Shown here in pieces: positions 30,902-63,240 of a DNA stretch of 64,000 nt. This DNA is from a virus (lineage: Duplodnaviria; Caudoviricetes). Position 1 is the first letter of the stretch; each line of letters begins with the position of its first letter. Position numbers and translations under genes: made by a program. The stretch covers positions 32,001-96,000 of IMG/VR virus record IMGVR_UViG_3300014641_000001. One strand, 5' to 3'. Under the pieces are notes generated by a model. That model saw only the letters and a program-made list of their open reading frames with translations. It was not told where the DNA came from and ran no database searches.

Positions 30902-30946
30902 CTCATTGAAAACCATCTTTCATTGATCCTTTCTATCTATCGCCAA

Positions 30947-31648
30947 TCAATATTGGCTAACAGGTCGCTTTCTGACCTCTTCATTAATAGAATCTACTAC
31001 TTGTTGTACATCTTTATTTCCATCTACAACGAAATCAACTTCGTCCTTTATTCCTAAGAACATTCCAAAGTCTCTTTCAACTCTTGAGCATATTTCGTTT
31101 TTATCGTCGAATGTAAACTTATCAATTCCACATCTCTTTATGTAACGAATTACTCTGTTTCCAAGGTTAGTATCAATATATATCGTAAATAAGTTCTTCG
31201 AAGTATCAAGGCTTCTGTTTAATTGACGTATTCCATTAGGTGTAAGTACCACCACTCTGTTTCCACTCATATATTCGCTTTTTGGTGTACCGTAGAATCT
31301 ATTTTGAGAATATTCTTCATATTCAGCGAAAAAACCCTCATCTAATAGCTTCTTAAACTCATCATTTGATATAAACCAGTAATCTTCACCATTAACCTCA
31401 TTTTCTCTTTTGTTTCTTGTAGTATAAGAAATGATCTTTTTATATCCTAGTTTTGATACCAAATAATCTTCGACCGTTGATTTCCCAGATCCAGAAGCGC
31501 CTATCAATATAATTGTATATGGATTATGATTTTTGTTCGTTGGAGTATAACGCTCACCACAAGCGCTGTTTTTGTCTATCCAACAATTGTTATCTATATG
31601 TATGCATCTCTGACAAATAATGCTACTTGGATTTCCCAATTTACTCAC
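30947..31648 (-). CDS. Guanylate kinase-like protein
   Basis: GASGSGKS, SYTTRNKRENEVNGEDYWF, YGT. Confidence 0.85.
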   Translation of the reverse strand: MSKLGNPSSIICQRCIHIDNNCWIDKNSACGERYTPTNKNHNPYTIILIGASGSGKSTVEDYLVSKLGYKKIISYTTRNKRENEVNGEDYWFISNDEFKKLLDEGFFAEYEEYSQNRFYGTPKSEYMSGNRVVVLTPNGIRQLNRSLDTSKNLFTIYIDTNLGNRVIRYIKRCGIDKFTFDDKNEICSRVERDFGMFLGIKDEVDFVVDGNKDVQQVVDSINEEVRKRPVSQY

Positions 31649-32222
31649 CTCCCAATACTAATTCTCTAAACATCGGTAGCTCTTCAACCCATTTACAAAA
31701 TGCTCTCCATTCAAGGAGTCGGTGATTTCTTCGCTGATAATACATAGTCTTCAACTGCTGATAATTTGTAGTAAATCCAGCAGTTAACTCAAACCCGGAA
31801 GGAACGTTATATAGAATTGTCAAATATAATTCCATTGCAAACTCAGTCCCTTTGTCTTCCAACCCGTTATAGACATCAATCATTTCTTGAACTACATCAA
31901 TTATTCTCTGATCTACATATTCATTACATTGATTTTTAAAAGCAAATTTTGTGATACGATGCATAGTTGACTGACTGGAAATAAAGTCTATGAAGTGGTA
32001 CCTCTCTAGCTCCACGGACATCTTGTTTGAAAATCTCATATCAAACTGAACTACTATCCCCTTAAGGAAGTTATCATGACCTGTGCCTGATTTACATGAT
32101 CCCAACTTTGTAGTTGTTTTCGTAACTTCTTTTGTACAGTCTTCTGCGTTTACTGCCATTGGCAACTTACTTACTCTGATAGCATTTTCAAGACCATAAA
32201 CATTTACATTGCTAATCTGCAT
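31641..32222 (-). CDS. ThyX-like (flavin-dependent thymidylate synthase fold) phage protein
   Basis: GHDNFL, ELERYH, SQSTMH, NYQQL...QRRNHRL.EW; nucleotide-metabolism context. Confidence 0.6.
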   Translation of the reverse strand: MQISNVNVYGLENAIRVSKLPMAVNAEDCTKEVTKTTTKLGSCKSGTGHDNFLKGIVVQFDMRFSNKMSVELERYHFIDFISSQSTMHRITKFAFKNQCNEYVDQRIIDVVQEMIDVYNGLEDKGTEFAMELYLTILYNVPSGFELTAGFTTNYQQLKTMYYQRRNHRLLEWRAFCKWVEELPMFRELVLGGE

Positions 32223-32233
32223 TCATTCTCCTC

Positions 32234-32434
32234 CTATCTGTAGTATTTTAATTCTCCATTATCATCAAAATTATCAATATTCAAGACGACGGTATTGCCG
32301 TCTCTCAAAAATACATTCTCTATTTTTCTGTCATTTCTATATGTGTCTGACCCAATTTTGCCAGCACAAACCAAAGCCCTGGGATATTTTAATAATTCCA
32401 TCGCTAAATCTTCAGCATAAATAATTCCTTTAAT
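32234..32434 (-). CDS. hypothetical protein (probable ATT start), 66 aa
   Basis: SD GGAGG 9 nt before ATT; fills the gap before the ThyX-like gene. Confidence 0.5.
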   Translation of the reverse strand: MKGIIYAEDLAMELLKYPRALVCAGKIGSDTYRNDRKIENVFLRDGNTVVLNIDNFDDNGELKYYR

Positions 32435-32505
32435 ATTTTTTTGCCTCCTATATGTAATTGTAAAATTGTTGGGATTTTTGTTGATATGATTTAAAACAAT
32501 GCTTT

Positions 32506-32976
32506 TTAAAGGTTTAGTAATCGTATTGCCCTATCAACATTTTTCTGTTGAAGCCCTTTGTTGAATGATGTTTGAACTAATCTGTCCATGAACGGCTTCA
32601 TATCTGCATCATCATCTATAATAATAAATGACTCTACCGGTTCACCCTTCCAGTTATCAATCCATGTTTTTATTTCTTCTCCACGATAGCCGCTTGAAAG
32701 TCTTGGAGTTCGTGAAAGGAATGTAATACCATACTCACTTAATTTATCTTCTAGTTTAGTGAAGTCCTCTGCATTTCTGCTATGTACATCATAATCTCGA
32801 TCAAACCAACCGATACGCCACGTAGAAGATAGAACAACTTTTGCACCCGTGGCATCAATAATTTCTTTAAGTAGCTTAATACGATTATCGTTTACAAAAT
32901 ATAATCCTCCGATCTTATCTCGACAGCCATTAAAATTAAGCACTCCATCAATGTCCAAAAATACGACCTTGATAAT
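32506..32976 (-). CDS. HAD-superfamily (Swiss-army-knife RNA-repair-like) phosphatase
   Basis: VVFLDIDGVLN, VLSSTWR, RGEEI, IIIDDD; ATT/ATC start after GGAGGTG. Confidence 0.8.
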   Translation of the reverse strand: MIKVVFLDIDGVLNFNGCRDKIGGLYFVNDNRIKLLKEIIDATGAKVVLSSTWRIGWFDRDYDVHSRNAEDFTKLEDKLSEYGITFLSRTPRLSSGYRGEEIKTWIDNWKGEPVESFIIIDDDADMKPFMDRLVQTSFNKGLQQKNVDRAIRLLNL

Positions 32977-33009
32977 ATCACCTCCAATTATTCATTTGAA
33001 ATTTCACTT

Positions 33010-33540
33010 TCATCTTGCCTTTATAGTGTCTGCATATGTCATTACACTATCATAAAAATCTGATATACTATTGTAATCACCGGCATCAAATACCGGGATG
33101 TCATAAACTTTGGCAATCCTGATTGCCTTACCAGTTCCTCCACTACCTTTACCATTCTTAGTCCAACATAACACGAAACTTGAAGGTGTTTTCAAGTCTT
33201 TTCCAAGAACCTGATGACTATTTCTTGCTTGTAATTTTCTCGCTCCTTCTTTAAGATTATGCCAATAAGGATGATACTTTTGAGCTATGTCAAATGCTTC
33301 AATATTTTTCACTACCAAATCAGAGTTAGAACCATTAAATCCTATCCATGGTACATATATTTCTTTTTCACCATATACTCTATCACATCCCTGTTCAAAA
33401 GCTAGGTCAGCACCATCAGCGTGTCCCGATCTTAATATAAAATCGTATTTTGTATCCATCAATTCACCGATGTCTCTGAACACACTAAGTACATTTTCTG
33501 GTGTTTCTCTTGAACCAATACCTGCATAATAAATATTCAA
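33010..33540 (-). CDS. SLOG/DprA-like Rossmann-fold protein
   Basis: YAGIGSRETP, LRSGHADGADLAFE, ARN, GGTGKAIRIA. Confidence 0.75.
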   Translation of the reverse strand: MNIYYAGIGSRETPENVLSVFRDIGELMDTKYDFILRSGHADGADLAFEQGCDRVYGEKEIYVPWIGFNGSNSDLVVKNIEAFDIAQKYHPYWHNLKEGARKLQARNSHQVLGKDLKTPSSFVLCWTKNGKGSGGTGKAIRIAKVYDIPVFDAGDYNSISDFYDSVMTYADTIKAR

Positions 33541-33555
33541 ATATAATTTCTCCTC

Positions 33556-33927
33556 TCAACTACTATATTTATTTGCTAGTTCACTTAATATTTGCATTGA
33601 TTCCTTACTTCCACAAACAGTTGGTTTCTTTTCGCAACCGGAAACCATTTTATTAAAATTGTCAAAAACAGTCTTTTCAACATTGTCAATTTTTACAGTT
33701 GTATATTTCATTAATCTTAAAAATTTTGCGATTTCTTCTTGGCATTTTGGGCATACATCTTTTTGTTTTATTTCCAAGATTTCTTTGGAAAACTCTGCTG
33801 CCTTGACATCGTTATTCATCGCATATACAGATTCGTACTCTAAACTTGGTACTGTGATGTCTGTGTGTTCACATTCTTTACCACAGTAATCACAGTAATA
33901 TGTATATATTTCTTTTTTCTTTTCCAT
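33556..33927 (-). CDS. hypothetical Zn-finger protein
   Basis: CDYC...CPKC; SD AAGGAG. Confidence 0.65.
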   Translation of the reverse strand: MEKKKEIYTYYCDYCGKECEHTDITVPSLEYESVYAMNNDVKAAEFSKEILEIKQKDVCPKCQEEIAKFLRLMKYTTVKIDNVEKTVFDNFNKMVSGCEKKPTVCGSKESMQILSELANKYSS

Positions 33928-33951
33928 TTAAACTCCTTTGAAAGTCCAGTT

Positions 33952-34296
33952 TTAACTTGTTTCCATATTTTCCAATGCATATCCAAGTGCCTCAGAGAAT
34001 CCACAACCACCATTATAAAAACTCACTACGTAATTAATTGTTCCGTCCGAGTTCAAGTTGGCGTGATAAACATCATCTCCATCTAAGTCAACGTCTTTAA
34101 TAATCTTATAAATATTGTTTTTATAAATAATAAATTTATTACGGTATTCGTCACAAAAACATTCCTCCCACGAATCATAATATGGCTTCATTTCTATCCC
34201 CTCTTTGTCGCAATATGATTTGCACCATGCCTCTACTGTTTGACAAATTGGAACTATTTTTAACAACTTACCAACATGCGTTTCTGTCTGTGACAT
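33952..34296 (-). CDS. hypothetical protein
   Basis: SD AAGGAGG. Confidence 0.7.
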   Translation of the reverse strand: MSQTETHVGKLLKIVPICQTVEAWCKSYCDKEGIEMKPYYDSWEECFCDEYRNKFIIYKNNIYKIIKDVDLDGDDVYHANLNSDGTINYVVSFYNGGCGFSEALGYALENMETS

Positions 34297-34478
34297 GTTT
34301 AATCCTCCTTATTTTTACGAATAGATGTTAAATTTCATCTGTTCCATATGGTTCTTTTTTGATATATTCTGGCTCTTTTATCAATCGCATCTTCATCGAA
34401 TCTAAAGCACACTCCACCATCTGACACATTTCACCATTATGTTGAGTCGTATATCTCTTTTGTAATCCTTCAAAATGC

Positions 34479-34769
34479 TTAATTGACTTTTCTAATATTG
34501 TCATTCAATGATGCCTCCAATTCGTTATATTTTGTTTTTACGCTTTCAATTAATTCACAAAACCAATTGTCTGCATAACTTAATACTTTATCAATATCAT
34601 TAGGATCAACTTCTTCATCATCTGTTTCTCTGCATTCATCTATGTACTCGTCACTATAATTAATTTCCCACCATGTTTCTCCAAAACTACAGTGTTTCGT
34701 GCAGGATAGAGTCCCTATTTTCCCAATGGTTTTTGAATAATCATTATCATTATTTTTAAACCAATCCAT
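34479..34769 (-). CDS. hypothetical protein
   Basis: SD AAGGAG. Confidence 0.65.
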   Translation of the reverse strand: MDWFKNNDNDYSKTIGKIGTLSCTKHCSFGETWWEINYSDEYIDECRETDDEEVDPNDIDKVLSYADNWFCELIESVKTKYNELEASLNDNIRKVN

Positions 34770-34795
34770 GCTAACTCTCCTTTAAAATCCCAAAT

Positions 34796-35374
34796 TCATT
34801 TATCAAATTTTACGTTGTTGAGAATCTGATATAATTCACGGATAACCTTGGCATCATATAAAGCGTTATGTTTATCTCCTTGAATCTTATCTTCTTTGTA
34901 ATTTTGATATAAGATGTCTTCTCTGGATTTGTCAAAAGCTTCCTTTGAAGTTATTCCATATTTCCGAGCAATGTCCTGATTGATATCATAGCACGCAGCG
35001 CATACGTTCTTGGGAATATCAAATGCTCCACCAAATAAATCAATAAACAAAACCATGTCGTAGTGGCAAACATCTGAAACCAGCTCTACCGATTCAAATT
35101 GCTTTAACCAATTACGAAGCATCATAGCAACCTCTTGCTTTGTGCCAATTCTATATCCACTAATATACTGTTCTTCTGATTCATCTTTTCTGCACACGAG
35201 ATTGTTTATTACGTTATCAAGCAGAAATTTACTCTTATCTGCATAGACTTGCTTCCAATCGAAATCTGACAATTCAGCATAGAAAGTCCGCCTATCTTCT
35301 GAAATTAATCCTATGCTCACAAGCGTTGTGCTCTTATGTAATCCAGTAAATTCTGTATCAAAAAATATCTTCAT
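34796..35374 (-). CDS. DEDD 3'-5' exonuclease (RNase AS-like)
   Basis: FFDTEFTGL...LVSIGL...YD...HNALYDA. Confidence 0.85.
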   Translation of the reverse strand: MKIFFDTEFTGLHKSTTLVSIGLISEDRRTFYAELSDFDWKQVYADKSKFLLDNVINNLVCRKDESEEQYISGYRIGTKQEVAMMLRNWLKQFESVELVSDVCHYDMVLFIDLFGGAFDIPKNVCAACYDINQDIARKYGITSKEAFDKSREDILYQNYKEDKIQGDKHNALYDAKVIRELYQILNNVKFDK

Positions 35375-35415
35375 CTATTCCTCCTTATAAATAATGACTT
35401 TCACTATCCTCAAAT

Positions 35416-35844
35416 TTAATCGATCTGTTCAATTTTGATTTCTTGATGAGCAGGAATTACTATTTCAGGTACGTCAATCAACTTCATAATCTCAATTACT
35501 GGTTCGTGGTATTCATAACTCCAATCTGAATAATAAGAGCCTGTTCTGCACATGTACTGATTTAAGAACAAATTATAATAATCAGTGACGCTAGCTTTGC
35601 ACGCATAACCGGCCTTTGACTTATCAAAAGAAACTAATTGATACTTAACGCTTCTGTCCTCATATTTACCGTCACTTATCCAGTCATCAGTTTCAATTAT
35701 CCATAGATCATAACTAATCCCATTATTTTCAAATGCGCCAGATAATTCAAGGTTTTCCGTGATGGCGAATTTATTCTTTACCAGCTCTAATAAATCATCA
35801 CCACAACTTTTAAATTTCTTAAAATTTTCAACTTTAATATCCAT
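35416..35844 (-). CDS. hypothetical protein
   Basis: SD AGGAG. Confidence 0.65.
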   Translation of the reverse strand: MDIKVENFKKFKSCGDDLLELVKNKFAITENLELSGAFENNGISYDLWIIETDDWISDGKYEDRSVKYQLVSFDKSKAGYACKASVTDYYNLFLNQYMCRTGSYYSDWSYEYHEPVIEIMKLIDVPEIVIPAHQEIKIEQID

Positions 35845-35898
35845 ATTTTCTCCTATTCATGTTGTTTTTTACTATGAAACTTCCGTTTCAATTTTTAT

Positions 35899-36162
35899 TT
35901 AAATATGCCAAACTCCCCTAGTGAATAAACTGTTTGCTAAATATGAAAAATCATTTAATGCTATTGGTTCATCATAGTCGTCATTAAATTTTTTCAGTAA
36001 CTTTGTAAAATTATCATAGGCAGCCAAAACTTCATCTTTACGTTTATTCTTTTCAGCAATCAATTTTTCTCTTTTAGTTTTCTCTTCATTTAAAACTTTT
36101 TCATGTTCTAAATATTCCTGCTCTGAATTAAATACTTTGTTATCATCTGAAATATATTTCAT
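35899..36162 (-). CDS. hypothetical protein
   Basis: SD AAGGAG. Confidence 0.65.
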   Translation of the reverse strand: MKYISDDNKVFNSEQEYLEHEKVLNEEKTKREKLIAEKNKRKDEVLAAYDNFTKLLKKFNDDYDEPIALNDFSYLANSLFTRGVWHI

Positions 36163-36184
36163 AATTATTTTCTCCTTATCTTTT

Positions 36185-36472
36185 TTAAGATTGATTTTGC
36201 TTACTCAGCCATTCAATTAATTCTTCTTCTGAAAATTCTTCTGACGTTTCTACATCTGGATTGTAAAATTGAATTGATGTGTTGTCTACACCTTGATTTA
36301 ATAGCTGATTTATAATAGAAAATGCATTTTCAACACCAAGTAAATACGCTTTCTTTTCAAGTTCCGTCATACCATTTGTCATTGTTTTTTCATTGCTTTT
36401 CATTAAGCGTTCTGCTTCCTTTGTGTTTACCGCCCAAAATGTTAACTCGTTTAATTCGTCTATCATTCTCAT
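36185..36472 (-). CDS. hypothetical protein
   Basis: Operonic ORF. Confidence 0.6.
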   Translation of the reverse strand: MRMIDELNELTFWAVNTKEAERLMKSNEKTMTNGMTELEKKAYLLGVENAFSIINQLLNQGVDNTSIQFYNPDVETSEEFSEEELIEWLSKQNQS

Positions 36473-36473
36473 A

Positions 36474-36680
36474 TTACTTATCCCCTTTCATACCATCTAA
36501 ATTTAATGACTTCTCACAGAATGATTTAATATCAGCAACACTCTTTCCTTCGTTACACATATTCAATACTGCACCAAGGATACCAGTAGCACCTGCTCTC
36601 ATGCCAGATAACCTAACTTTATTCACCGTATCTTCTGCTGTTTTCTGAAATAACTTTTCTGCATTTTTATTATTGCTCAT
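36474..36680 (-). CDS. hypothetical protein
   Basis: SD AAGGAG. Confidence 0.6.
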   Translation of the reverse strand: MSNNKNAEKLFQKTAEDTVNKVRLSGMRAGATGILGAVLNMCNEGKSVADIKSFCEKSLNLDGMKGDK

Positions 36681-36693
36681 TCCTGCATCTCCT

Positions 36694-36921
36694 TTAATAA
36701 ATTCTCTCTAGTCCCATATAACCCGAATAAACGATGTGTGTGTCATCATAAAACAGTGTTTTTCCAATATCCTTTCGTGTCACGTACTGATAAGAGAATC
36801 CACATCCTTTATTGTCGGGAATAAATATGTGCCTGAGCCACTTTCTTTTAATGGTTCCACGCAGTAGCATGTCTTCATCTAGTAACCATGCTGCTGTTTT
36901 CATTGATTTTGTAAATTTCAT
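36694..36921 (-). CDS. hypothetical protein
   Basis: SD AAGGAG before MKFTKSMK. Confidence 0.55.
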   Translation of the reverse strand: MKFTKSMKTAAWLLDEDMLLRGTIKRKWLRHIFIPDNKGCGFSYQYVTRKDIGKTLFYDDTHIVYSGYMGLERIY

Positions 36922-36956
36922 GCACTCCTTCTTTCTATATAGATGAATTGTTGATT

Positions 36957-37184
36957 TCATTTTTCCTTTTTTGATGAACACCAAACGCAATTATATTCCT
37001 TCTTAAAATCTGGTGGATCTTTTATCATAAAAGATTCAATAACTTTATTCTCATCTTCTATTAATTCACGCTCATATTGTGCATTTAGCAAATAAAATAG
37101 TCTTGCTCGTCTACCACGAATTGGTGTATTTTCTGATTCCAATGTTTCTATGGTGCTTCCATTTTCTAATTCAATCTTCATCAC
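36957..37184 (-). CDS. hypothetical protein
   Basis: IELENGSTIETL..IRGRRA, weakly terminase-fragment-like. Confidence 0.5.
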   Translation of the reverse strand: MMKIELENGSTIETLESENTPIRGRRARLFYLLNAQYERELIEDENKVIESFMIKDPPDFKKEYNCVWCSSKKEK

Positions 37185-37213
37185 ATCTCACTAACTTTGA
37201 ATGGTTTGTTTCA

Positions 37214-37378
37214 TTACAGTTTTTCAATTGTAACTTTGTATTTATCTCCTACGCCTGTATCAGCTCCTAGTAGTTCATCTAGTGCTGTAACTACATCGGC
37301 AGAAAAACTATGTTCATCTGTATCAAAGAACCAATCATTAAAATCATGAACCACTGTACCAATTACTTCTGTTTTCAT
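37214..37378 (-). CDS. hypothetical protein, 54 aa
   Basis: SD GGAGG; bounded on both sides by the 16-bp palindrome. Confidence 0.6.
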   Translation of the reverse strand: MKTEVIGTVVHDFNDWFFDTDEHSFSADVVTALDELLGADTGVGDKYKVTIEKL

Positions 37379-37404
37379 TTATTTCCTCCGATCAAAGTAT
37401 TATT

Positions 37405-37638
37405 TCAATGTTCAATTGTATCTTCGCCGATAATATCAAAACACTCATTTAACCATTTAAATACATTATTTAAGTTATATGAACTATACCCCACATTACA
37501 CTCTTCCTTGTCAATACAATGATATTTGATCTCATAATATGGTTTTTCAGCAGTCCCATGAACAACTATTTCAGCGCTTTTTACTTTTATTCTTACTTTT
37601 TCAACATCATTATTTTCTTTCATTGTCACATTGCTCAT
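37405..37638 (-). CDS. hypothetical protein
   Basis: SD AAAGGA. Confidence 0.6.
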   Translation of the reverse strand: MSNVTMKENNDVEKVRIKVKSAEIVVHGTAEKPYYEIKYHCIDKEECNVGYSSYNLNNVFKWLNECFDIIGEDTIEH

Positions 37639-37691
37639 ACTGTCTTTTCCTTTCTATTATATTTTTGCTTTGAATCGTTACTTTCATGCGC

Positions 37692-37901
37692 TTATTTATT
37701 CAAAGCATCATGTATAATATCTTCATATTTATTTAACAAAGCATCACGCTTTCTACAAATCGGAGGTAGACCCTGATATTGATCACACCCTCCTATACTT
37801 GCAACTCTGAATAATGAGAAATCTCTTTTCTTGGACTTCTCTGTAATTTCTTCAATAAATAAATATAAATCCTTAATACACTGTTTCTCTGTTTTGTCCA
37901 T
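37692..37901 (-). CDS. hypothetical protein
   Basis: SD AGGAG. Confidence 0.6.
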   Translation of the reverse strand: MDKTEKQCIKDLYLFIEEITEKSKKRDFSLFRVASIGGCDQYQGLPPICRKRDALLNKYEDIIHDALNK

Positions 37902-37912
37902 ATGACATTCTC

Positions 37913-38239
37913 CTATATTTTTTTAATAATAAACTCGGCCAGATCGTCAGTAGTGTCTTCTGTAAATTCTTCAAAGTCATCCATAGTCATAGTTTCGTGT
38001 GAAAATGCCGACTTGTCTCTTGTAAGATTGTAAGCGTATGTATCTGTGTAAATGCTAAAGTAGTCATTCAGGATTGATACCAGATTATCCTTTAACATTC
38101 CTGTTTCGTAATCCAAAAGTCTGTTTGCTAAATAAGAAATAATGCCTGTCTCATCTTTCTCTATTCTATATTTTAAATATCCGTAATTATCTAAAACATC
38201 AATTGATCCATCTTTGTTCTTTTCTAATAATTTATTCAT
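37913..38239 (-). CDS. hypothetical protein
   Basis: SD GAGAGG lies within the palindrome spacer. Confidence 0.65.
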   Translation of the reverse strand: MNKLLEKNKDGSIDVLDNYGYLKYRIEKDETGIISYLANRLLDYETGMLKDNLVSILNDYFSIYTDTYAYNLTRDKSAFSHETMTMDDFEEFTEDTTDDLAEFIIKKI

Positions 38240-38263
38240 CTATGAAACCTCTCTTTCAACTGA

Positions 38264-38833
38264 TTAATCATGAATATCTAGTATCGTTATATATTTACCG
38301 CCACAGTTGTCAATCATATTTTTAAATTTCTTATCAAAATCTTCATCTTTAATAAAATCTTTTCCGTTCCAATGTTCTCTGGCGATTGCTGTACCGTCAG
38401 AGTCTATACATATATAGCAGTCTTGATTATCTAAATTTAATAAATCGTCACTGAAAGCTGAATCGACATAAAGATAACCGTCTTGCGATCCCATACTAGA
38501 AAAATATTTTTCTTCTGAGTACATGAAAGAGTTGCCTGAGAATTTCTTCATCTCATATAATAAATAAGAATGAAAAAGTCTTCCATTTCTCGCATCTTTG
38601 GCGTAGTATCCCCATCTGTATTTTTCATCATCTTTGTCAATTTTCAGTTTTAATGAACCAGCATATCTTCCACCAATTTGATAATAATCCCATGTGAATA
38701 GTGGGTATTCCCCAATTAACTCACCAGTTTCTTCATCACTTTTTAAATTTTCGCAATCATATTTTTCCATAATATTTGAAATATTATTTTCTGTTGGGAA
38801 TTCATCTGTTATTAATAAAGTACAATAATGCAT
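38264..38833 (-). CDS. hypothetical phage protein (WDYYQIGGRY...DIHD type)
   Basis: SD AGGAGG. Confidence 0.7.
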   Translation of the reverse strand: MHYCTLLITDEFPTENNISNIMEKYDCENLKSDEETGELIGEYPLFTWDYYQIGGRYAGSLKLKIDKDDEKYRWGYYAKDARNGRLFHSYLLYEMKKFSGNSFMYSEEKYFSSMGSQDGYLYVDSAFSDDLLNLDNQDCYICIDSDGTAIAREHWNGKDFIKDEDFDKKFKNMIDNCGGKYITILDIHD

Positions 38834-38870
38834 TTATACTCCTCCTACATTCTCCTTTGAAATCGTCATT

Positions 38871-39134
38871 TTAGTGCTTTTTGTAACTCCACATAAAGTA
38901 ACCTTGTTCTCCAATTTGGTCACACATATCACAAGTATGAGGCACTTCTTTCTGTTGGTATTCACAAGTTTTACAACCAATCGGAACTGCTTTAAATCCT
39001 AACATCCTTCCACTCTCGTACTTTATTCCAGTAATAAAATATTCTTTACTATCTATAAACACTGATGCTTCTTGATTCTGTGTTACCCTTATCGGCTGTT
39101 TGCCTAATTTTTCCCAAATCTTTAAATATTTCAT
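38871..39134 (-). CDS. hypothetical Zn-binding protein
   Basis: CKTC, CDMC; SD GGAGG. Confidence 0.6.
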   Translation of the reverse strand: MKYLKIWEKLGKQPIRVTQNQEASVFIDSKEYFITGIKYESGRMLGFKAVPIGCKTCEYQQKEVPHTCDMCDQIGEQGYFMWSYKKH

Positions 39135-39150
39135 GAATCCTCCAATAAAT

Positions 39151-39885
39151 TCATTCTTTCAACTGCTTATATGTAAATAACTTTTCAACTCTAATATTTT
39201 GTTTGTCGTCTTTATTCTTATTACTATCCAACAATGTTTTGACTTCCTTCTGCCAAATACATTCAAACTCATCTGGCATAGCATACTCGCTTATCAAAAC
39301 AGTATTATATATGCTTGCAGCTTTTACCCAACTATAAAATTCCTCATACGGAAACCATTCGGTTTTATATTTTGTAGTACCTTTATATGGTATATCGCAG
39401 TAAATAACATATCCTTTTATTTTATCTAGCGGCAGATTTCTAAAATCACTGCATTTAAATCTAATACCTTTTAAATTTGGTATTTGTTTTAAAGTATTGA
39501 CATATGCTTCTTTGGAATAATTTCTTTTGCCAATTTTATCTCGCCTATATCCACCAAACCACTTTCCACCATATGAGAGTTGAAACCCAACGTATCCAAC
39601 TAAATAATCATTATATAAATCTTTATTATTTTGAATTGATTTATAATCGTCTTCTGAGATGTTTTCCGGAGGAAGCCAACCCCCTGATAGTTTATTAAGA
39701 ACTGCGATTAGATAGTTGTGTACGTCACAACCAATTCTTTTTTCACATTTTATCTTATCAATCATGTTCGCACCACCTACAAACGGCTCTAAGTATCCAA
39801 TTGTATCATCAGTAATATAGGACTGTATAATGGGAGCCAATTCTTTGCTTAATCTATTTTTACTACCTACATATTTCAATAACAT
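39151..39885 (-). CDS. DNA adenine methyltransferase (Dam/D12 class)
   Basis: YVGSK, EPFVGGA (motif I), YCDIPY (motif IV variant). Confidence 0.88.
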   Translation of the reverse strand: MLLKYVGSKNRLSKELAPIIQSYITDDTIGYLEPFVGGANMIDKIKCEKRIGCDVHNYLIAVLNKLSGGWLPPENISEDDYKSIQNNKDLYNDYLVGYVGFQLSYGGKWFGGYRRDKIGKRNYSKEAYVNTLKQIPNLKGIRFKCSDFRNLPLDKIKGYVIYCDIPYKGTTKYKTEWFPYEEFYSWVKAASIYNTVLISEYAMPDEFECIWQKEVKTLLDSNKNKDDKQNIRVEKLFTYKQLKE

Positions 39886-39980
39886 CACCAGAAAGGTAGA
39901 ATTCTCTTTGGTCGCGACACCTTTATTCCTTTCTGTTTTCTTATATTAAATTTCCAATCAAATTTTCATTTCATGTATTC

Positions 39981-40820
39981 TTATTCTCCATCACCAAACG
40001 CAAGCATTTCATCTTTAGCTCTAGTGAAGAAATTTCTATCAATCTCAAACCCATATGCCGATCTTCCCAGCTCATGAGCTGCCCTCAGTGTTGCCCCTGA
40101 ACCACAACACGGATCAATTACAACGTCTCCTGGATCAGTAAATGTTTCAATTAATTTTTTTAACACACCTACCGGCTTTTGTGCTGGATGAATTTTAGGA
40201 ATGTTCTTTCCATCTTTCTCCCATGTAAACCAATTGAAAACCATATGCCCTGTACCACGAATGTTCTTACCATTTTCGTCAATCTGTAATCCATTTCTGA
40301 ACTTAGGAAGTTTATTGCGGTAAAATAATAGTGCATATTCGGTTGCACCAACTACACGCATATTGGCTTTTAAAACCTGTGGACTGTAATTCTTAACAAA
40401 AACCAATGGTATGTAATTTACGAATCCATGTTTCTTAGCTGCATCAATCAATGTCTGAATCTGTTCAAAGGAGCAGAATACAATCATGCATGGGCTATCT
40501 GAACTTCTTCCTCTTGGAACTGGTCTAGTATCATCCTTTTTTAACATCTTGGAACAAAAGTGGAAGTATTCATAAAGGTTAAAATTGAAGTCTGAATTGA
40601 AAGCTGCCTTACCAGCAAGTTTACTTTCTCCATTTGAACTATCACCGTTCTTATACCACATAGGATTAGAACCGTAAAAATTATTTCCTACATTATATGG
40701 AACATCTGCAATGATTAACTGGGCAGGTCTGATTCCGTACTTTTTATAATTCTGCATCGAGTCACGATATATCTCACATTTAACTTTTCTTTTTGTATTC
40801 TCTCTAATATTGTTTTCCAT
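39981..40820 (-). CDS. N4/N6 DNA methyltransferase (beta class)
   Basis: IADVPY, HPAQKP, VIDPCCGSG. Confidence 0.88.
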   Translation of the reverse strand: MENNIRENTKRKVKCEIYRDSMQNYKKYGIRPAQLIIADVPYNVGNNFYGSNPMWYKNGDSSNGESKLAGKAAFNSDFNFNLYEYFHFCSKMLKKDDTRPVPRGRSSDSPCMIVFCSFEQIQTLIDAAKKHGFVNYIPLVFVKNYSPQVLKANMRVVGATEYALLFYRNKLPKFRNGLQIDENGKNIRGTGHMVFNWFTWEKDGKNIPKIHPAQKPVGVLKKLIETFTDPGDVVIDPCCGSGATLRAAHELGRSAYGFEIDRNFFTRAKDEMLAFGDGE

Positions 40821-40945
40821 TTATATTTTAGGGTACAGTACTGTTACCTCGCGAGAAACCACTACCCTTTCTTCTATTTTCACATGTTGCAATCATGTTC
40901 TTATTAGTTTAATTCTCTTTTTAATAGGATGAATCTTTAAATTCA

Positions 40946-41464
40946 TCAATAAATATTATTTTCGTAGATTTGTACTAACTTATAAAAAGTCGTTCTTTTC
41001 AATTTAAGATCGTCCATGAACTTCTTAGCAGTAATTCCATTTCTTTTCCACTCCGTAAAATACTTTTCCCATCCTTCCGGAAACTCGGCTGAAGGTCTTC
41101 CGGTTGCATTACCCGTTTTAATTGATACCTTTTTCCCATCGACTAATGGCATAGCGTCTATTCCTCGCCTTTGATTTCTTTTTTTATATCCTTCGTAATC
41201 AATAATAGGGCTTCCTTTTTGTATGTACTTTTCTTTAAGTTCTGTTTCAACGAGATATGCTTCCTTTTCAGATAAGTCAGAAACAAGAATTTCAGAGCAA
41301 ACGCTATGAGCATTGATTATTGCTCCAACATGATTACTCCTATTTTCGAAATTCTTATATCTGTCTCCACTTCCTTTTCCTATGTAAAAATAATCATTCC
41401 AATCATTATTGTAAAAAGCATAAACATAATACTTATTTTGATCCATAAATAAGGAGCTTTGCAA
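40946..41464 (-). CDS. GIY-YIG (LEM-3-like) nuclease domain + resolvase-type HTH
   Basis: YYVYA...FYIGKGSGDR; C-terminal GRP...LKRTTFYKLV. Confidence 0.7.
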   Translation of the reverse strand: MQSSLFMDQNKYYVYAFYNNDWNDYFYIGKGSGDRYKNFENRSNHVGAIINAHSVCSEILVSDLSEKEAYLVETELKEKYIQKGSPIIDYEGYKKRNQRRGIDAMPLVDGKKVSIKTGNATGRPSAEFPEGWEKYFTEWKRNGITAKKFMDDLKLKRTTFYKLVQIYENNIY

Positions 41465-41584
41465 AATTGTGTCATGACGCTCATCTCCTTTCTAATTTTA
41501 TGTATATTTATTAACCCAGTGTTCGCGATCACTAGATTCATAATTTACATTTCCGCATGAAAGCGGAGTTTCATTGCCAAATTG

Positions 41585-41631
41585 TTACTATATATAGTAT
41601 TGAATGGTATTAAAACCACTACATATAGTAG
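41585..41631. promoter_or_regulatory. Tandem NrdR boxes
   Basis: TTACTATATATAGTAT and CCACTACATATAGTAG, starts 31 bp apart. Confidence 0.7.
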
Positions 41632-41709
41632 TCACATTTTCTGTTCCTTTAACTATTTTTGAGATTTAAACTCTTGATTATTCGCACCAGAGTAATAACC
41701 GCAAAATTA

Positions 41710-42048
41710 TTATTCTTGTAAAAATAATGTTTTCAACTTACGGATTCTTCTGTCGAAACACCTTTCAAATTCTTCTTTAGAGATAAGCTCTAATTCAGAA
41801 ATAGAATTTGTTGCATAATTATCATGTTCAAAACTTTCTCCGTAACTTTCGCTGTTGAAAAAATACACTTCATTACAAACATATTCTCCATCACCAGCTT
41901 GATCCTTTTTAATAATCTGTCCAATAGCGTCACCAGATTTATAATACCTGCCCACCACATTGTCTTTCAGGTTTTCTAATTCATTCTCTTTCTCTTTTAA
42001 AACTTCTTGTAAATATTTTATATTGCTCTTAATTTCTGTTATCGTCAT
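41710..42048 (-). CDS. hypothetical protein
   Basis: Operonic ORF. Confidence 0.6.
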   Translation of the reverse strand: MTITEIKSNIKYLQEVLKEKENELENLKDNVVGRYYKSGDAIGQIIKKDQAGDGEYVCNEVYFFNSESYGESFEHDNYATNSISELELISKEEFERCFDRRIRKLKTLFLQE

Positions 42049-42247
42049 TCCTGTTAAAGCCCCCTTTTACTAGTTTAGAAACCAATGAACCAAAGAACCA
42101 ACCATATCCAGCACAACCGATTAAATACATTACGATAGCACCTGGTTCACATTTGCTGATCCCGTCAGTTCCAAGGCCAATTATTATAAATAAGAAAGAC
42201 GATAGAAATAACAATGCTAACAATGACGTTTTAATAATTCTCTTCAT
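42029..42247 (-). CDS. small 2-TM membrane protein
   Basis: SD AAAGGAG; two hydrophobic segments. Confidence 0.6.
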   Translation of the reverse strand: MKRIIKTSLLALLFLSSFLFIIIGLGTDGISKCEPGAIVMYLIGCAGYGWFFGSLVSKLVKGGFNRNDDNRN

Positions 42248-42273
42248 TTTTCTCCTTTCATGAAACACAGATT

Positions 42274-42936
42274 CTATTGTAAAATTTTAAAGTCTACAAG
42301 TATCACTTCATGCTCACCGATAATATGACTTTTTATGTCTTCTAGTGTATATGGATATTTATTTCCAATTACAATGATATCATCTGAAATTTGATCTATA
42401 TTTTCATGAGCGTCTGTTTCATAAACGCTTTTATGATAATCTCCATTCGCAATTATGGTTGACAAATAAGATTTCCCAGCCACACTGTCACCAATGAAAA
42501 CCCAGACTGGTCTTTTTTCTTTGTTTCTATTAATCTCTTTAAATAATTCCATGTTAACAGTAGCACTTCCACCTGGGTAATAATAATCTCCTCCGTTACT
42601 ATCTAATGAAAAGATGTTATTTTCTACATCATTAATTTCTTTTTCTCCTAAATCAATCAAGATATCCAAATCAAAATATAAATCAGAAATTGGAACGTGA
42701 GTCACTCCTGCAAAACTACTAACCTTTTTTATGTATCCGTGTCCGAATGAGGCAGCACACCAACCACTATAGCAATCTCCATATTCAGTCCATAACGTGA
42801 TCTCATATTTACTTCCTTCATATTTACCATGTTCCACACAGTTAAGTATGTATAAGACATTATCATCATAGTTATCTTCTCTGTCGTTATACGTAAGTTT
42901 TTTCTCTATCCTCATATACTTTACTTTTAAATTCAT
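42274..42936 (-). CDS. hypothetical protein with degenerate P-loop
   Basis: GDSVAGKS; SD AAGGAG. Confidence 0.65.
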   Translation of the reverse strand: MNLKVKYMRIEKKLTYNDREDNYDDNVLYILNCVEHGKYEGSKYEITLWTEYGDCYSGWCAASFGHGYIKKVSSFAGVTHVPISDLYFDLDILIDLGEKEINDVENNIFSLDSNGGDYYYPGGSATVNMELFKEINRNKEKRPVWVFIGDSVAGKSYLSTIIANGDYHKSVYETDAHENIDQISDDIIVIGNKYPYTLEDIKSHIIGEHEVILVDFKILQ

Positions 42937-43036
42937 AGCTTTCTCTCCTTTTCAATTTTTAGAAACATGAACAGCAGGATTCGAACCTACCGTCCACATG
43001 AAACTCGTATTTCCTTGCTGTTTACTAATTCTCCGT

Positions 43037-44968: not shown

Positions 44969-44985
44969 TCAAATCCTCCTTAGTT

Positions 44986-45162
44986 TCATAGGCAATTTCT
45001 AAATAGAAATCTTTCAATCTTATTCATTTTTCTGTAACCAGTAATTGTACCTAGTTCAATTCCCATATCATACATGTTCTTATCAAATAAGTTAGCATAT
45101 TTATGACCACCTTTTCTGTACAACACTTTTACATTAAATAAATACTCCTTTTTACTTTCCAT
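44986..45162 (-). CDS. hypothetical protein
   Basis: SD GGAGGTG before MESKK. Confidence 0.55.
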   Translation of the reverse strand: MESKKEYLFNVKVLYRKGGHKYANLFDKNMYDMGIELGTITGYRKMNKIERFLFRNCL

Positions 45163-45184
45163 TACACCTCCATAAAATACTCGT

Positions 45185-45565
45185 TTAGTTGGCATAGTTC
45201 ATCTCACAATCTTTAAATAAATTTAATTGCTGGTTTTTAGATACTAAATAATCGTAATCTATTTTATCGCAACTGTTCTGATATACTATTTCTCCGAAGA
45301 TACCCACAATCACACAGCCCACAAGTGAAACAAGTGGACTGATTCCCAACAACATTAAAATAATCCACAATGGAACGAACATTCCGCACATTGTCCAAAG
45401 TCCAAATATGCACATTCTATTTGCGCCGTAATAATGTTCTCTCGAAACCATTTTATCTAATTTGTTTAGTTTTACAGGAGTATATCCATTCCACTTCTTA
45501 TGATCATATAAAAGCTGCTGTAAATCTCTTTGTTCATAATCTCTAAGATTAAAAAATTCCGTAAT
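45185..45565 (-). CDS. membrane protein (probable ATT start)
   Basis: Frame open to ATT 45565 after GGAGGTG; two TM segments. Confidence 0.6.
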   Translation of the reverse strand: MTEFFNLRDYEQRDLQQLLYDHKKWNGYTPVKLNKLDKMVSREHYYGANRMCIFGLWTMCGMFVPLWIILMLLGISPLVSLVGCVIVGIFGEIVYQNSCDKIDYDYLVSKNQQLNLFKDCEMNYAN

Positions 45566-45608
45566 TTACACCTCCCTACCCTATTTTATTATCCTTTGAA
45601 CCACTGTT

Positions 45609-45923
45609 TTAAGCCCTATTATTCTCTTCGTAATATTCCATACATTTTTCTATGTAGTCCAAATGAGAATGATAAAAGTCATCAAAAATATTATTCTCTT
45701 TCTTTTCTCTATAAAAGCCTATTCTACGTTTTACTTCTTTGTACATCTCTGATTTCTGTGATGTTTTAGTTTGTTTCTGACTATATTCAAATGCCCTTAG
45801 TTCATCTTTGGACAACCACTTTACCCAGGCTCCGCAATCGTCACAGTATAAGCCGGTATTGCTACCTTTTACTTCAGTATGGAGCGATGTGCTACCACAC
45901 TTTTTACAACAATTTTGATACAT
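45609..45923 (-). CDS. Zn-ribbon protein
   Basis: CKKCG...YCDDCGAWVKW. Confidence 0.7.
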   Translation of the reverse strand: MYQNCCKKCGSTSLHTEVKGSNTGLYCDDCGAWVKWLSKDELRAFEYSQKQTKTSQKSEMYKEVKRRIGFYREKKENNIFDDFYHSHLDYIEKCMEYYEENNRA

Positions 45924-45936
45924 CTAATCCCTCCAT

Positions 45937-46182: not shown

Positions 46183-46226
46183 GATAACACCTCCTAATTC
46201 TCCTTTGAAAAATATATTTTCTGTAA

Positions 46227-57773: not shown

Positions 57774-58796
57774 CTACTCTTCGATTAACATGGCTTCCTC
57801 TTTAATCAAATCCTGCAAATCATCGAGAATCAACATGAGCAAATCAATCTGTGTAGCATCGCAATCTCTAACAAGTTTACCTTTTCCAAGTCTGGTATTC
57901 GTGACAGACTGATACTTGTCCATTGCTCCCTGCTCGTTTAAAGCCTTTGCGATTTTGCCGATTTTGCCAACTGTTTCTTTGAAATCAGCAACTTCGGTCT
58001 GATCTTTATATACATCAATAGGTTTGTCAGATACTTTTGCTCCATCTTCTTTTTCTAACTTGTCAATTGCTTGCTGCATATCTTCAAGTAATGCAGTATA
58101 TGTGAATGGAATCTTAGCTGACATATACTTATTTCTTGAACCAGCTTCCAACTCTTTGCTGCCTCTTAGATACAGAACCATTCTATTTTCGCCACTTTCA
58201 GTAGGTTCAAATGTAGAATATCCGATAACATCAACAAGTCTTGCAAGCACTTTCAGACCTCTTTTATCTACTGTTGGCTGAGTTTTATCATACTTTTCAC
58301 CATTCTCTTTAATCTGCTTTGTATCACTATGAGAAATTACAACTAATGTGTATCCAGCTTTTACGATATCCTGGAAATATGCGTCATATTCTCTTTCCAC
58401 TGCCTTGTATCCACGCTTAGATTCTGTTTCATCAAGGTAATCAACGCCCTCTTTAGCAAGAATGTATGCTTCGCACATGTCGTATGCTAAGTCCGCGGTA
58501 TCCACAATTACTGTCTTAAATACTGTTTCATCCTTTTCCCCGTCTTCAACAGCTTTTGCGTCCTTCAGCAACTGTTTCTTAACGTCTAGTGCTTCTTTCC
58601 ACTTATTAATTGGCTGCGCCATTACGCCTGATAACATGTTGTACCCTTTTTCAAAAGCCACAAGAATAGGCTTTGGGAACTTAACAGCATTACTTGTTTT
58701 TCCTGACTTCTTATCTCCATAAATCAAAAATGATTTACCACTTAAATCTCTACTAATTACACTTGGTTTAATTCCAAAAATATCAATTCCTGCCAT
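57774..58796 (-). CDS. AAA-family ATPase (Sak4/AAA_24-like)
   Basis: YGDKKSGKT, VIVDT, ISH. Confidence 0.8.
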   Translation of the reverse strand: MAGIDIFGIKPSVISRDLSGKSFLIYGDKKSGKTSNAVKFPKPILVAFEKGYNMLSGVMAQPINKWKEALDVKKQLLKDAKAVEDGEKDETVFKTVIVDTADLAYDMCEAYILAKEGVDYLDETESKRGYKAVEREYDAYFQDIVKAGYTLVVISHSDTKQIKENGEKYDKTQPTVDKRGLKVLARLVDVIGYSTFEPTESGENRMVLYLRGSKELEAGSRNKYMSAKIPFTYTALLEDMQQAIDKLEKEDGAKVSDKPIDVYKDQTEVADFKETVGKIGKIAKALNEQGAMDKYQSVTNTRLGKGKLVRDCDATQIDLLMLILDDLQDLIKEEAMLIEE

Positions 58797-58851
58797 TTAA
58801 AGATCTCCTTTATGTATGTTATTTGTTATTATATTATGGGGAAGAGAGTGC

Positions 58852-60208: not shown

Positions 60209-60247
60209 CGTTAACCACCTCCTCATATCCAATTGAAACAGGAATTT

Positions 60248-60805
60248 TCACGGTATATCTTCAACCCAGACATCTCTTGTATAAGTAATTACTTTCTTTT
60301 CAAGATGTTCTTCCTCACCACACCAGTTACATCTTCTATGCTCTGGATCAATGTATGTAAATCTTTCCTCATCATCACTAATCCAGACCCCATGCCCGTA
60401 AATGCAGCGACCAATCTCAATGTATTTCTCATAAAACTCCTTCGTTACATCAACAAAATTTGAATTAGCATTGCACATGTAACAGAATGTTGTTTGTGAG
60501 CACTGGCCTCCCACAATTAAGCTATTGATACACTTGCCAGTAATACAATTGGAACCCAACCCGTCCGGTTCACCGAAATACAGATTTCTTAAATCCATAT
60601 TATTTACATCAAATTTTACCTTGACATAGTTTTCAGAATCGCTATCATATTTTGATTCGTCAAAATAAACCTTTCTGTAATATGGGTTATTTTTGAGATA
60701 CTTGTAAATTGCCTTACTGTACTTGTCTGACTTCTTGATATTCTTTGGTTTAATAGAAGCCAGATCAATTACATAATCAACTTTTGCTCTTTTAACATCT
60801 ACCAC
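60248..60805 (-). CDS. hypothetical protein
   Basis: SD GAGGAGG; Cys/His motifs. Confidence 0.7.
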   Translation of the reverse strand: MVDVKRAKVDYVIDLASIKPKNIKKSDKYSKAIYKYLKNNPYYRKVYFDESKYDSDSENYVKVKFDVNNMDLRNLYFGEPDGLGSNCITGKCINSLIVGGQCSQTTFCYMCNANSNFVDVTKEFYEKYIEIGRCIYGHGVWISDDEERFTYIDPEHRRCNWCGEEEHLEKKVITYTRDVWVEDIP

Positions 60806-60843
60806 TCTGAGCCTCCTCTCATTTAATCATTCTCCTTTTATTT

Positions 60844-61569: not shown

Positions 61570-61626
61570 TATTATTTCACCTCCTCTTATATATTCTCTC
61601 TTGAAATCGAAGTTTCCTCGCCTTAT

Positions 61627-62172: not shown

Positions 62173-62219
62173 TTCTATATTCTCCTTTATATTTTTTATT
62201 TACCCATAAAAGACGTGTT

Positions 62220-62411
62220 TCAAGAGATTACCTCCATATCTTCATCGGATAAGCACTCTTCCTCGATTTCGCAGTCAAAATGTAAACGCAGTAATTCTAA
62301 CCACACATGATTATCTAAATGGTGACCGGAAGTCCTGAGTTTTCCATCTACCTCAAGAATCACCCAATCGCCAGAATCACAAGTTGTCACCTTAATTTTT
62401 GTATTGGCCAT
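62220..62411 (-). CDS. hypothetical protein
   Basis: Operonic ORF. Confidence 0.55.
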   Translation of the reverse strand: MANTKIKVTTCDSGDWVILEVDGKLRTSGHHLDNHVWLELLRLHFDCEIEEECLSDEDMEVIS

Positions 62412-62414
62412 TAG

Positions 62415-62696
62415 TCACCCACTTTCCTTTTCACCTAAATATCCCAGAATACCACCAAGCCCTCTACCTCTTACAATCTGCTTTGCCATCGATATAGGAA
62501 TGTAATTCTCGCAATTGTCACCATCACATTTTAAAATACCTTTGTATTTGCCATAATCTTCGAGCTGCATAAAAACCATATCAATATTAAATGCTATTGG
62601 CTCATCCATTACTTCTTGAATATAATCAAGTTTTTCGTAGGAAGCCAAATCTTCTAAACGATTTATTAATTTATCTACATCAATTAATCTTCCTAT
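62415..62696 (-). CDS. hypothetical protein (probable ATA start)
   Basis: RLIDVDKL motif; SD AGGAGGTG. Confidence 0.6.
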   Translation of the reverse strand: MGRLIDVDKLINRLEDLASYEKLDYIQEVMDEPIAFNIDMVFMQLEDYGKYKGILKCDGDNCENYIPISMAKQIVRGRGLGGILGYLGEKESG

Positions 62697-62730
62697 GTAA
62701 ATCACCTCCTATGAAAGTCGCATTTCATTC

Positions 62731-62958
62731 TCACCCCATCTTTATATCTAGGGCCAATTTTGATAATTCCTTGTTTTTCTCTTGACTAACTATTGTCTTA
62801 ATAGTATTATAAATTTTAGTTCTACAACCTTTGCATAAATTCATCTCTACGCCAATCAGGTCACAAGGTTTACCTTCAGCAAACGTAGCTGCAATTGGAA
62901 CTTTAAAATTTCTATCGTTACATTCTGACTGACACAGATCGCAATAATTCCGTACCAA
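62731..62958 (-). CDS. hypothetical Zn-finger protein
   Basis: CDLC...LCKGC; SD AAGGAG. Confidence 0.6.
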   Translation of the reverse strand: MVRNYCDLCQSECNDRNFKVPIAATFAEGKPCDLIGVEMNLCKGCRTKIYNTIKTIVSQEKNKELSKLALDIKMG

Positions 62959-63009
62959 ATTATTCTCCTTTCTGTTCTTTTATAAAATTGATCATTCAAC
63001 GATTATTTT

Positions 63010-63216
63010 TCACTCTTTTTTGTCTCTAACAATCGTCATTCCAAACAGTCTTATTTCACTTACTTCTGGATATTTTTCAAAAATATCTTTTACCGTATTG
63101 CAAATTTGCTGACAACCTGGGCGCATGTCGTCCATCCATTTCTTAAACTTAGCGCTCATTCTCTTTAAAGATTCTTCTTTAATTTCTTCTTCCGACAAAC
63201 CGACCCTCCATTCCAA
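63010..63216 (-). CDS. hypothetical protein
   Basis: Operonic ORF; start uncertain. Confidence 0.5.
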   Translation of the reverse strand: MEWRVGLSEEEIKEESLKRMSAKFKKWMDDMRPGCQQICNTVKDIFEKYPEVSEIRLFGMTIVRDKKE

Positions 63217-63240
63217 ATGAAAACAACCTTCTATTGGATG

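Follow-up and report, generated by a model that had tools for sequence, protein, structure and literature searches.

A palindrome array at the gene junctions of SPbeta-like phages looks like a natural system for swapping gene cassettes at fixed positions

We analyzed a 64,000-nucleotide stretch of DNA (referred to here as the window; bases 32001-96000 of a 124,265-bp IMG/VR virus record, IMGVR_UViG_3300014641_000001, labelled G000 as a whole) from an SPbeta-like gut phage, in which the palindrome TGAAA-N6-TTTCA punctuates the junctions of small accessory genes. The sites are real, and the array looks like a natural system that swaps gene cassettes at fixed positions. We propose that the palindromes are core sites of the lox/dif type, in which the arms would bind a recombinase and the unique 6-bp center would serve as the address of a position. 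To this reading, which is drawn from sequence comparisons, we assign a probability of roughly 0.6. An earlier note, made from the letters of the window, had likened the palindromes to tyrosine-recombinase core sites bounding integron-like cassettes, with operators and RNA hairpins as alternatives.

The six perfect and 19 degenerate copies listed in that note were all present, and a seventh perfect copy was found at 7827. The chance expectation for the window is 0.43 perfect copies, in agreement with the earlier estimate of less than one, and none of 100 shuffles gave seven; the whole record contains 10. Across the early block on the minus strand of the full 124-kb record, the junctions (6.4 kb) contain 19 copies of the relaxed form, T[GA]AAA-N6-TTT[CT]A, and the coding DNA (55.9 kb) contains 5 (i.e., a density about 33 times higher in junctions). 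Shuffled junctions, in which each stop codon and the last 20 nt (the Shine-Dalgarno [SD] sequence plus the start) were kept, contained 0.9 relaxed copies on average and never more than 4, which bears out the predicted enrichment at gene boundaries. Only a spacer of 6 was enriched (28 matches, vs. 1 to 6 for the others among spacers of 2 to 10). The symmetry reaches positions 0 and 17 (A/T), giving an element of about 18 bp. With two mismatches allowed, 46 junctions have a copy, and the six central bases show no consensus across these junction sites.

The upstream stop codon, described earlier as often forming the first three bases of the site, does so in 17 of the 46 junction sites. This is about the one in three expected for genes running into T[GA]A, so we did not treat it as separately selected. 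The SD sequence begins 0 to 4 nt after the site in about half of the sites and is supplied by the spacer itself at 38243, as had been reported. Junction sites are absent from the replication block (46.3 to 59.8 kb), as claimed, and the few matches there all lie inside conserved coding DNA. The late/structural (plus-strand) half of the window has one perfect site, at 7827. Another site lies 56 bp ahead of the window start.

The evidence for exchange at these sites comes first from G001, a 133-kb provirus with a polymerase 95% identical to that of G000. The two genomes have about 90% DNA identity in the replication block and almost no accessory genes in common. Sites with identical 6-bp centers numbered 32 in the two early blocks, vs. 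3.6 expected, and 31 of the 32 formed a colinear chain (null mean, 8.8; maximum, 12). At 26 shared sites, the 60 nt on each side were at random identity (i.e., both flanks were unrelated). The intervals between consecutive shared sites differ in length and gene number between the two genomes; of the 30 intervals, 2 are conserved, 9 have been replaced in part, and 19 are without any homologous gene. Homologous genes near the sites are only 70 to 75% identical, yet the centers are kept perfectly. Since the centers are unique within a genome and conserved in order between genomes, cassettes appear to be replaced where they stand, at fixed positions, instead of moving around the array.

The 26 pairs with unrelated flanks also indicate where within the site the exchange took place. 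Identity was at background outside positions 0 to 17, and positions 2 and 15 were identical in only 61% and 53% of the pairs, respectively, approximately as for independent draws from the site pool. The outer arm bases thus go with the flanking cassette, while about 12 nt around the center stay put. This comparison places the exchange at about positions 3 to 14, within a shared tract of only about 12 to 18 nt. A more distant genome, G002 (polymerase 78% identical), had 6 shared centers vs. 2.3 expected; here, either the scaffold differs or the compared stretch is too small.

One shared interval differs in another manner. The center GGATTG lies directly after gene b54 in G001 (G001:74374-74576), and an extra 80-aa gene intervenes in G000 (window coordinates 78383-78798). 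This looks like an insertion inside a cassette interval, not at a site.

The same kind of array was found in the Bacillus phages compared (SPbeta, phi3T, and SPR); stretches of the SPbeta genome (NC_001884) are labelled L005, L037, and L038. An unbiased palindrome scan of SPbeta gave TAAAA-N6-TTTTA as the strongest signal (16 copies in 50 kb vs. 0.9 expected), and the whole genome contains 36 copies at spacing 6, vs. 0 to 10 at other spacings. Most of these copies are at junctions between early genes, where the upstream gene often ends in TAA. Conserved flank bases, T(-5) Y T on the left and A R A(+22, in 34 of 36 copies) on the right, extend the layout to 11+6+11. Each pair among SPbeta, phi3T, and SPR shares 14 to 19 centers, vs. 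0.6 to 0.8 expected, in perfect order (rho = 1.0), and the shared sites show all four flank classes: both flanks homologous, upstream only, downstream only, and neither.

Blocks of homology between the Bacillus phages tend to open at site positions -1 to +1 and to close at positions 13 to 17. For example, a 3.2-kb, 100%-identical block of SPbeta and phi3T runs from the left edge of the site at 83688 into the right arm of the site at 86886. At the latter site, some phages have only the left flank in common and others only the right, such that the flanks reassort independently. Within the phage collection, the match to SPbeta ends at the right edge of the site at 116415 in seven natural phages. 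Homology was broken at 10 of 14 junctions with a site (4 intact) and at 13 of 48 junctions without one (35 intact).

The SPbeta record leaves copies (e.g., 83688, 86886, 92394, and 116415) unannotated, the one exception being a copy overlapped by a "stem_loop" at 2622-2651. A degenerate copy, TTAAA-N6-ATTTA, at the stop of yorY (SPbeta 116122-116137; L037:16122-16137) is a breakpoint too, and in eleven phage records the matches to SPbeta end or begin at query positions 216-223, at this copy. It lies directly upstream of the SPBRE (see below) of the yorZ promoter.

A further gut lineage (third lineage; polymerase 45% identical) carries RGAAA-N6-TTTCY, with 5 to 12 copies per genome vs. 1 to 3 for a control pattern. 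The site ahead of its homologue of the window gene at 38264-38833 is retained although the sequence further upstream differs (at least three contexts), and the homology around this gene begins at the site. Pairs of third-lineage genomes share 2 to 6 centers, vs. 0.2 to 0.4 expected, and these are colinear wherever there are three or more. No sites were found in the 24-kb loci around the polymerase of this lineage, as expected because the replication block has none. Taken at the level of sequence comparison, the three lineages showed that the palindromes are boundaries of mosaic blocks, with centers and order conserved while flanks are replaced. The core-site reading of the earlier note gains from these results, in that breakpoints between related phages fall at the sites in all three lineages and the layout matches that of a tyrosine-recombinase core site.

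Recombinants that arose in the laboratory provided another comparison. Dragos et al. list the junctions of phi3Ts x SPbeta recombinants (10.1101/2020.05.06.055103), and we converted the published chromosome coordinates to SPbeta coordinates via four homologous junctions, with agreement within about 15 nt. The 30-bp junction 7 maps to the allelic sites SPbeta 69424 and phi3Ts 62423, which share exactly 21 nt between unrelated flanks, and in the sole "non-homologous" junction (N1), the SPbeta end maps 1 nt from the site at 116415, which likewise has unrelated flanks in the two phages. These are the two junctions with the least homology in that experiment. The other 15 lie in homologous tracts, of 1.4 to 6.9 kb where the table gives a length (10.1101/2020.05.06.055103). 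Given the kilobase-long tracts of these other junctions, the sites were used far more often per base of shared sequence, although this is a rough estimate from small numbers. In the hybrid Hyb2phi3Ts-SPbeta, the left crossover falls within 1.4 kb of sequence shared exactly by both parents, a tract that starts at a site, and can be placed no finer than this tract.

In Cre/loxP, Flp/FRT, and XerCD/dif, the core sites consist of inverted recombinase-binding arms around a 6- to 8-bp center, and only sites with the same center recombine. The phage sites have inverted arms of 5 to 6 bp (about 11 bp in SPbeta) around a center of exactly 6 bp, and the 11+6+11 layout of SPbeta has the dimensions of dif. 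We propose that the two arms (5 to 6 conserved bp in the window phage) would bind a dimeric recombinase and that the center would be the region of strand exchange, which must match between partners. With its own center at each position, the only partner open to a site would be its counterpart at that position in a related phage or prophage sharing the cell, and neighboring sites could therefore not delete the DNA between them. A single exchange would give all the sequence on either side of a site a new partner. Two exchanges would swap the intervening cassette, like the heterospecific sites of engineered cassette exchange, in which two different lox or FRT sites flank a segment that is swapped without deletion. 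Because the outer arm bases would move with the cassette, the upstream gene could take its stop codon from the left arm, and the right arm could lead directly into the next SD sequence. This model would account for the fixed order, the perfect centers beside unrelated genes, the block ends at site edges, and the arm bases that follow the flanks.

The exchange is probably the work of a dedicated tyrosine recombinase, for which the candidates are a YomM-family protein and a small recombinase encoded in the array; a host Xer enzyme is also possible. Three tyrosine recombinases were found in G000 and in each of five gut-lineage relatives (G001, G006, G008, G009, and G010), namely, an integrase, a late-region YomM-family protein, and the smaller in-array one. 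SPbeta has YomM, YopP, and YopR besides a serine integrase. The two extra recombinases of G000 keep the R, HxxR, H, and Y residues. The YomM-family gene lies before the window (G000:C1:11915-12928; SPbeta yomM, L038:40301-41302). The small recombinase of 267 aa is encoded in the middle of the array, past the window end (G000:C1:108139-108942; window coordinates 76139-76942), and its counterpart of about 261 aa (G001:C1:77550-78335) occupies the same scaffold interval and is 25% identical, so the recombinase gene itself seems to be swapped like a cassette. A YomM-family protein was observed among the late genes in every lineage looked at, and the N-terminal PHROG 36816 is common to the family.

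We are evenly divided on the fuller proposal built on these candidates: a natural cassette-exchange system in which an ordered scaffold of 30 to 50 heterospecific sites would allow a phage tyrosine recombinase (of the YomM family or the small in-array enzyme) to swap accessory and counter-defence genes position by position between co-resident relatives, and in which sets of centers would define exchange communities.

Several points weigh against the core-site reading. Any link from a recombinase to the sites is a putative one. The two extra recombinases have diverged to about 25% identity between G000 and G001, although the arms are the same, and SPbeta YomM and YopP have HxxK instead of HxxR. 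Repeated centers are absent within a genome, and this uniqueness is no different from what chance alone gives. Pairing sites by identical centers is itself a selection step, of which the excess over chance and the colinearity are independent. The phi3Ts end of N1 lies 15 nt upstream of the allelic site, a position that fits microhomology as well as a site-specific event. Finally, identical sites of 16 to 30 bp could be used by general or phage annealing recombination, and the pattern of shared centers does not separate these mechanisms.

The last point leads to the first alternative, in which the palindromes have another primary role (e.g., as binding sites for a phage protein) and became mosaic boundaries only as 16- to 30-bp islands of identity for general or Sak4-type recombination, with no part played by a site-specific recombinase. 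A Sak4-like protein (window 57774-58796; a YorG homologue) is encoded beside the replication genes, crossovers can be located no finer than within the site, junction 7 has 21 to 30 bp of identity, and the phi3Ts end of N1 lies at a nearby arm-like, A-rich repeat. The PeSL cassettes of T4-type phages shuffle genes in this manner (PMC2839356). Nevertheless, SD sequences are equally conserved and adjacent, yet block ends pile up at the palindrome edges. The tract shared by G000 and G001 at their sites is also short for homology-driven exchange. Left unexplained are the palindromic arms, their conservation in three lineages, and the perfect centers amid 70 to 75% identical genes. We consider this explanation unlikely, though the likeliest of the alternatives.

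A second alternative, which we judge improbable, is that the palindromes are multicopy operators, like those of SPBRE/MrpR or the stoperators, through which a dimeric phage regulator silences or tunes long early operons, with the mosaic boundaries as a by-product. Their 5-N6-5 layout, in which the half-site centers are 11 bp apart, is equally the standard spacing for binding by a helix-turn-helix dimer. The half-sites vary independently, and the sites lie just upstream of SD sequences, as do SPBRE copies. SPbeta already has a repressor of recombinase fold, MrpR (YopR), with a repeated site (PMC10516654). However, an operator needs no position-specific center that survives the replacement of both flanks, and chromatin affinity precipitation sequencing (ChAP-seq) of MrpR gave ten peaks, all at SPBRE elements (PMC10516654). 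The SPBRE, as read from the MrpR-bound promoters of SPbeta, is ATACA-N7-TGTAT inside AAATACAAAAAATATGTAT (PMC10516654). Identity with the SPBRE/MrpR system was rejected because the sequence differs and G000 has no match to YopR, i.e., no MrpR homologue; YopR was the only match to the Pfam MrpR families (PF22822 and PF22823). Promoter-like sites showed no excess and were not aligned with the palindromes. An operator role may coexist with either mechanism of exchange, but it does not explain the conserved centers.

A sigma-70 promoter or intrinsic terminator was likewise rejected as the identity of the palindromes, as such sites are no more frequent than in shuffles, or are rarer, and their positions differ from those of the palindromes.

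That the sites act in mRNA as small hairpins or protein-binding elements, controlling processing or translation, is hardly credible: although they lie between stop codon and SD sequence on the coding strand, the 5-bp arm hairpin averages +0.45 kcal/mol (with no fold predicted for 46% of sites), variation at position 2 is independent of that at position 15 (G-C, 15; A-C, 12 of the 46 sites; G-T, 8; A-T, 4), the SPbeta flank pair -4/+21 likewise shows no pairing covariation, Rfam gave no match, and the conserved centers are not explained. The RNA hairpin offered in the earlier note was dropped on these grounds (i.e., folding energies, lack of covariation, and lack of an Rfam family).

The core-site reading can also be set against known systems. 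Like lox, FRT, and dif, the phage sites have inverted arms and a short center, and comparative evidence from three lineages points to exchange between sites of the same center with the flanks swapped. Engineered lox and FRT systems use one or two sites, whereas the phages have 30 to 50 natural sites with differing centers in a conserved order; here, a recombinase and its cleavage of the sites are predictions from sequence.

With integrons the arrays have in common that mostly promoterless accessory genes alternate with palindromic sites of the tyrosine-recombinase type and that cassettes turn over fast. Integron attC sites, in contrast, are 57 to 141 bp long, act as folded single strands, and are mutually compatible, so that cassettes reorder; the phage sites are 16 to 28 bp long, have their own centers, keep a fixed order, and do not have the character of attC. 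In an integron, the integrase platform with attI stands at one end, whereas the 267-aa recombinase is located mid-array. Of the integron-like picture first suggested, the site-bounded exchange of genes was retained, and the movement of cassettes gave way to their replacement at fixed positions.

The PeSL cassettes of T4-type phages also combine short conserved intergenic elements among small accessory genes with indel and replacement breakpoints at these elements (PMC2839356, PMC4122927). A PeSL consists of a sigma-70 promoter plus a terminator stem-loop and recombines with other PeSLs by homology (PMC2839356, PMC4122927), whereas the sites described here are neither and have position-specific centers. 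The SPBRE/MrpR system belongs to the same phage family and has a repeated palindrome just upstream of SD sequences, bound by a protein of tyrosine-recombinase fold; it differs in sequence and spacing, and its roughly 10 copies, all at promoters, are repressor operators without recombination (PMC10516654). The array lacks the PeSL combination of promoter and stem-loop, as well as the SPBRE/MrpR combination of sequence and MrpR-family protein. Stoperators of cluster A mycobacteriophages resemble the phage sites as dozens of short sites in short gaps between codirectional genes, often at stop codons. Unlike these sites, stoperators have no symmetry, follow the direction of transcription, do not differ from one another, and are the targets of the immunity repressor. 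To our knowledge, neither position-specific centers nor a link to breakpoints is among their features. In the papers and reviews consulted on SPbeta, phi3T, MrpR, and YonO and in searches with the motif text, we found no description of the element (the 1999 SPbeta genome paper was outside that scope).

The phage itself is SPbeta-like. Its DNA polymerase is 44% identical to SPbeta YorL, and G000 and SPbeta have in common a YonO-type RNA polymerase, an HU-like protein, a terminase, a YomM-like tyrosine recombinase, and the whole YorF-YorL replication block. Our search for near-identical phage records for the window found none. From 24.6 kb onward, every gene in the window is on the minus strand. 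Accessory cassette block 1 (30947-46131, minus strand) holds about 35 small genes, mostly of unknown function, few of which have a homologue in G001. Accessory cassette block 2 starts at 60059, occupies the window to 64000 (minus strand), and continues to about window coordinate 86000.

The identified genes of block 1 include those for a guanylate kinase-like protein (30947-31648), a "Swiss Army Knife" RNA-repair HAD domain (32506-32958), an Rv2179c-like 3'-5' exoribonuclease (34796-35374), an N6/N4 DNA methylase (39981-40820), and an NAD-dependent ligase. Most other cassette genes had no match in Pfam, and a search for related loci of the cassette gene at 35416-35844 found none.

Sites within the array are all listed for the minus strand. 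Among the perfect copies, 30907-30922 (center on the coding strand, GATGGT) has the same center at the colinear G001:126205 with unrelated flanks, and 32997-33012 has the stop TGA as its first 3 nt. The copy at 35875-35890 (CGGAAG) has a partner at G001:121385 with the same center and with both arms differing at positions 2 and 15. At 38243-38258, the center GAGAGG doubles as the SD sequence, and the identical 16-mer is present at the colinear G001:119133 between unrelated flanks. The remaining perfect copies are at 41558-41573 (CTCCGC; partner, G001:114549) and 62712-62727. The site at 42999-43014 (TACGAG), after the NAD-dependent ligase gene, is an identical 16-mer to that at G001:111018, with homology stopping at its 3' edge. 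The perfect copy outside the array (7827-7842) lies among small open reading frames (ORFs) in the interrupted tape measure region, and its copy at G001:21303 differs at one base of the center. This site sits in a stretch read as the cargo region of a group I intron, the second in the tape measure gene.

Sites with one mismatch are those at 33939-33954 (stop TAA as the first 3 nt, with the SD sequence abutting), 36944-36959 (TCAACA, at overlapping small ORFs; partner, G001:120574), 37198-37213 (CAAACC; G001:120207), 37392-37407 (stop codon in the arm), 37671-37686, 38858-38873 (TGACGA, stop codon in the arm; G001:117617), 39958-39973, 61602-61617 (CTTCGA; G001:90503), and 62207-62222 (stop codon in the arm). 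Two mismatches are present at 34783-34798 (TTGGGA, stop codon in the arm; G001:123041), 40930-40945 (TTAAAG; G001:116442), and 42261-42276 (TCTGTG, stop TAG in the arm; G001:114376).

Degenerate sites include 32492-32507 (GCATTG; colinear partner, G001:124778), just downstream of which homology to G001 starts, 35388-35403 (immediately ahead of the SD sequence), 39146-39161 (GAATGA; G001:117058), 45597-45612, 60234-60249 (TTCCTG; G001:92670), 62983-62998 (absent from the list in the earlier note), and 63218-63233. The 12.5-kb, 90%-identical replication block of G000 and G001 stops at the stop codon of a 781-aa helicase-like gene (PHROG "exonuclease V"/Dda-like helicase), and a degenerate site lies just past this stop at 46206-46221; G001 has a different site there.

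Just downstream of the site at 42999, the sequence GGTAGGTTCGAATCCTGC (window 42960-42998, minus strand) resembles the T-arm and 3' end of a tRNA. ARAGORN predicted no tRNA in the window, and the sequence may be a tRNA fragment or the remnant of an old attachment site.

The usual account of phage mosaicism is selection acting on rare events of illegitimate or relaxed homologous recombination. The joints described here are short, defined in sequence, and coded by position, and their conservation extends over three lineages that differ in host; SPbeta and phi3T, with the routine genetics of Bacillus subtilis, belong to one of these. If the exchange is enzyme-driven, it would constitute a second natural gene-cassette system beside integrons, with a logic of fixed addresses and allelic replacement. 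If true, this would explain the fast turnover of accessory and anti-defence genes in phages of 120 to 170 kb with a 90 to 95% identical replication core, and the array might then supply ready-made orthogonal recombination sites. Even if the exchange is driven by homology, the scaffold predicts where recombinants between such phages form.

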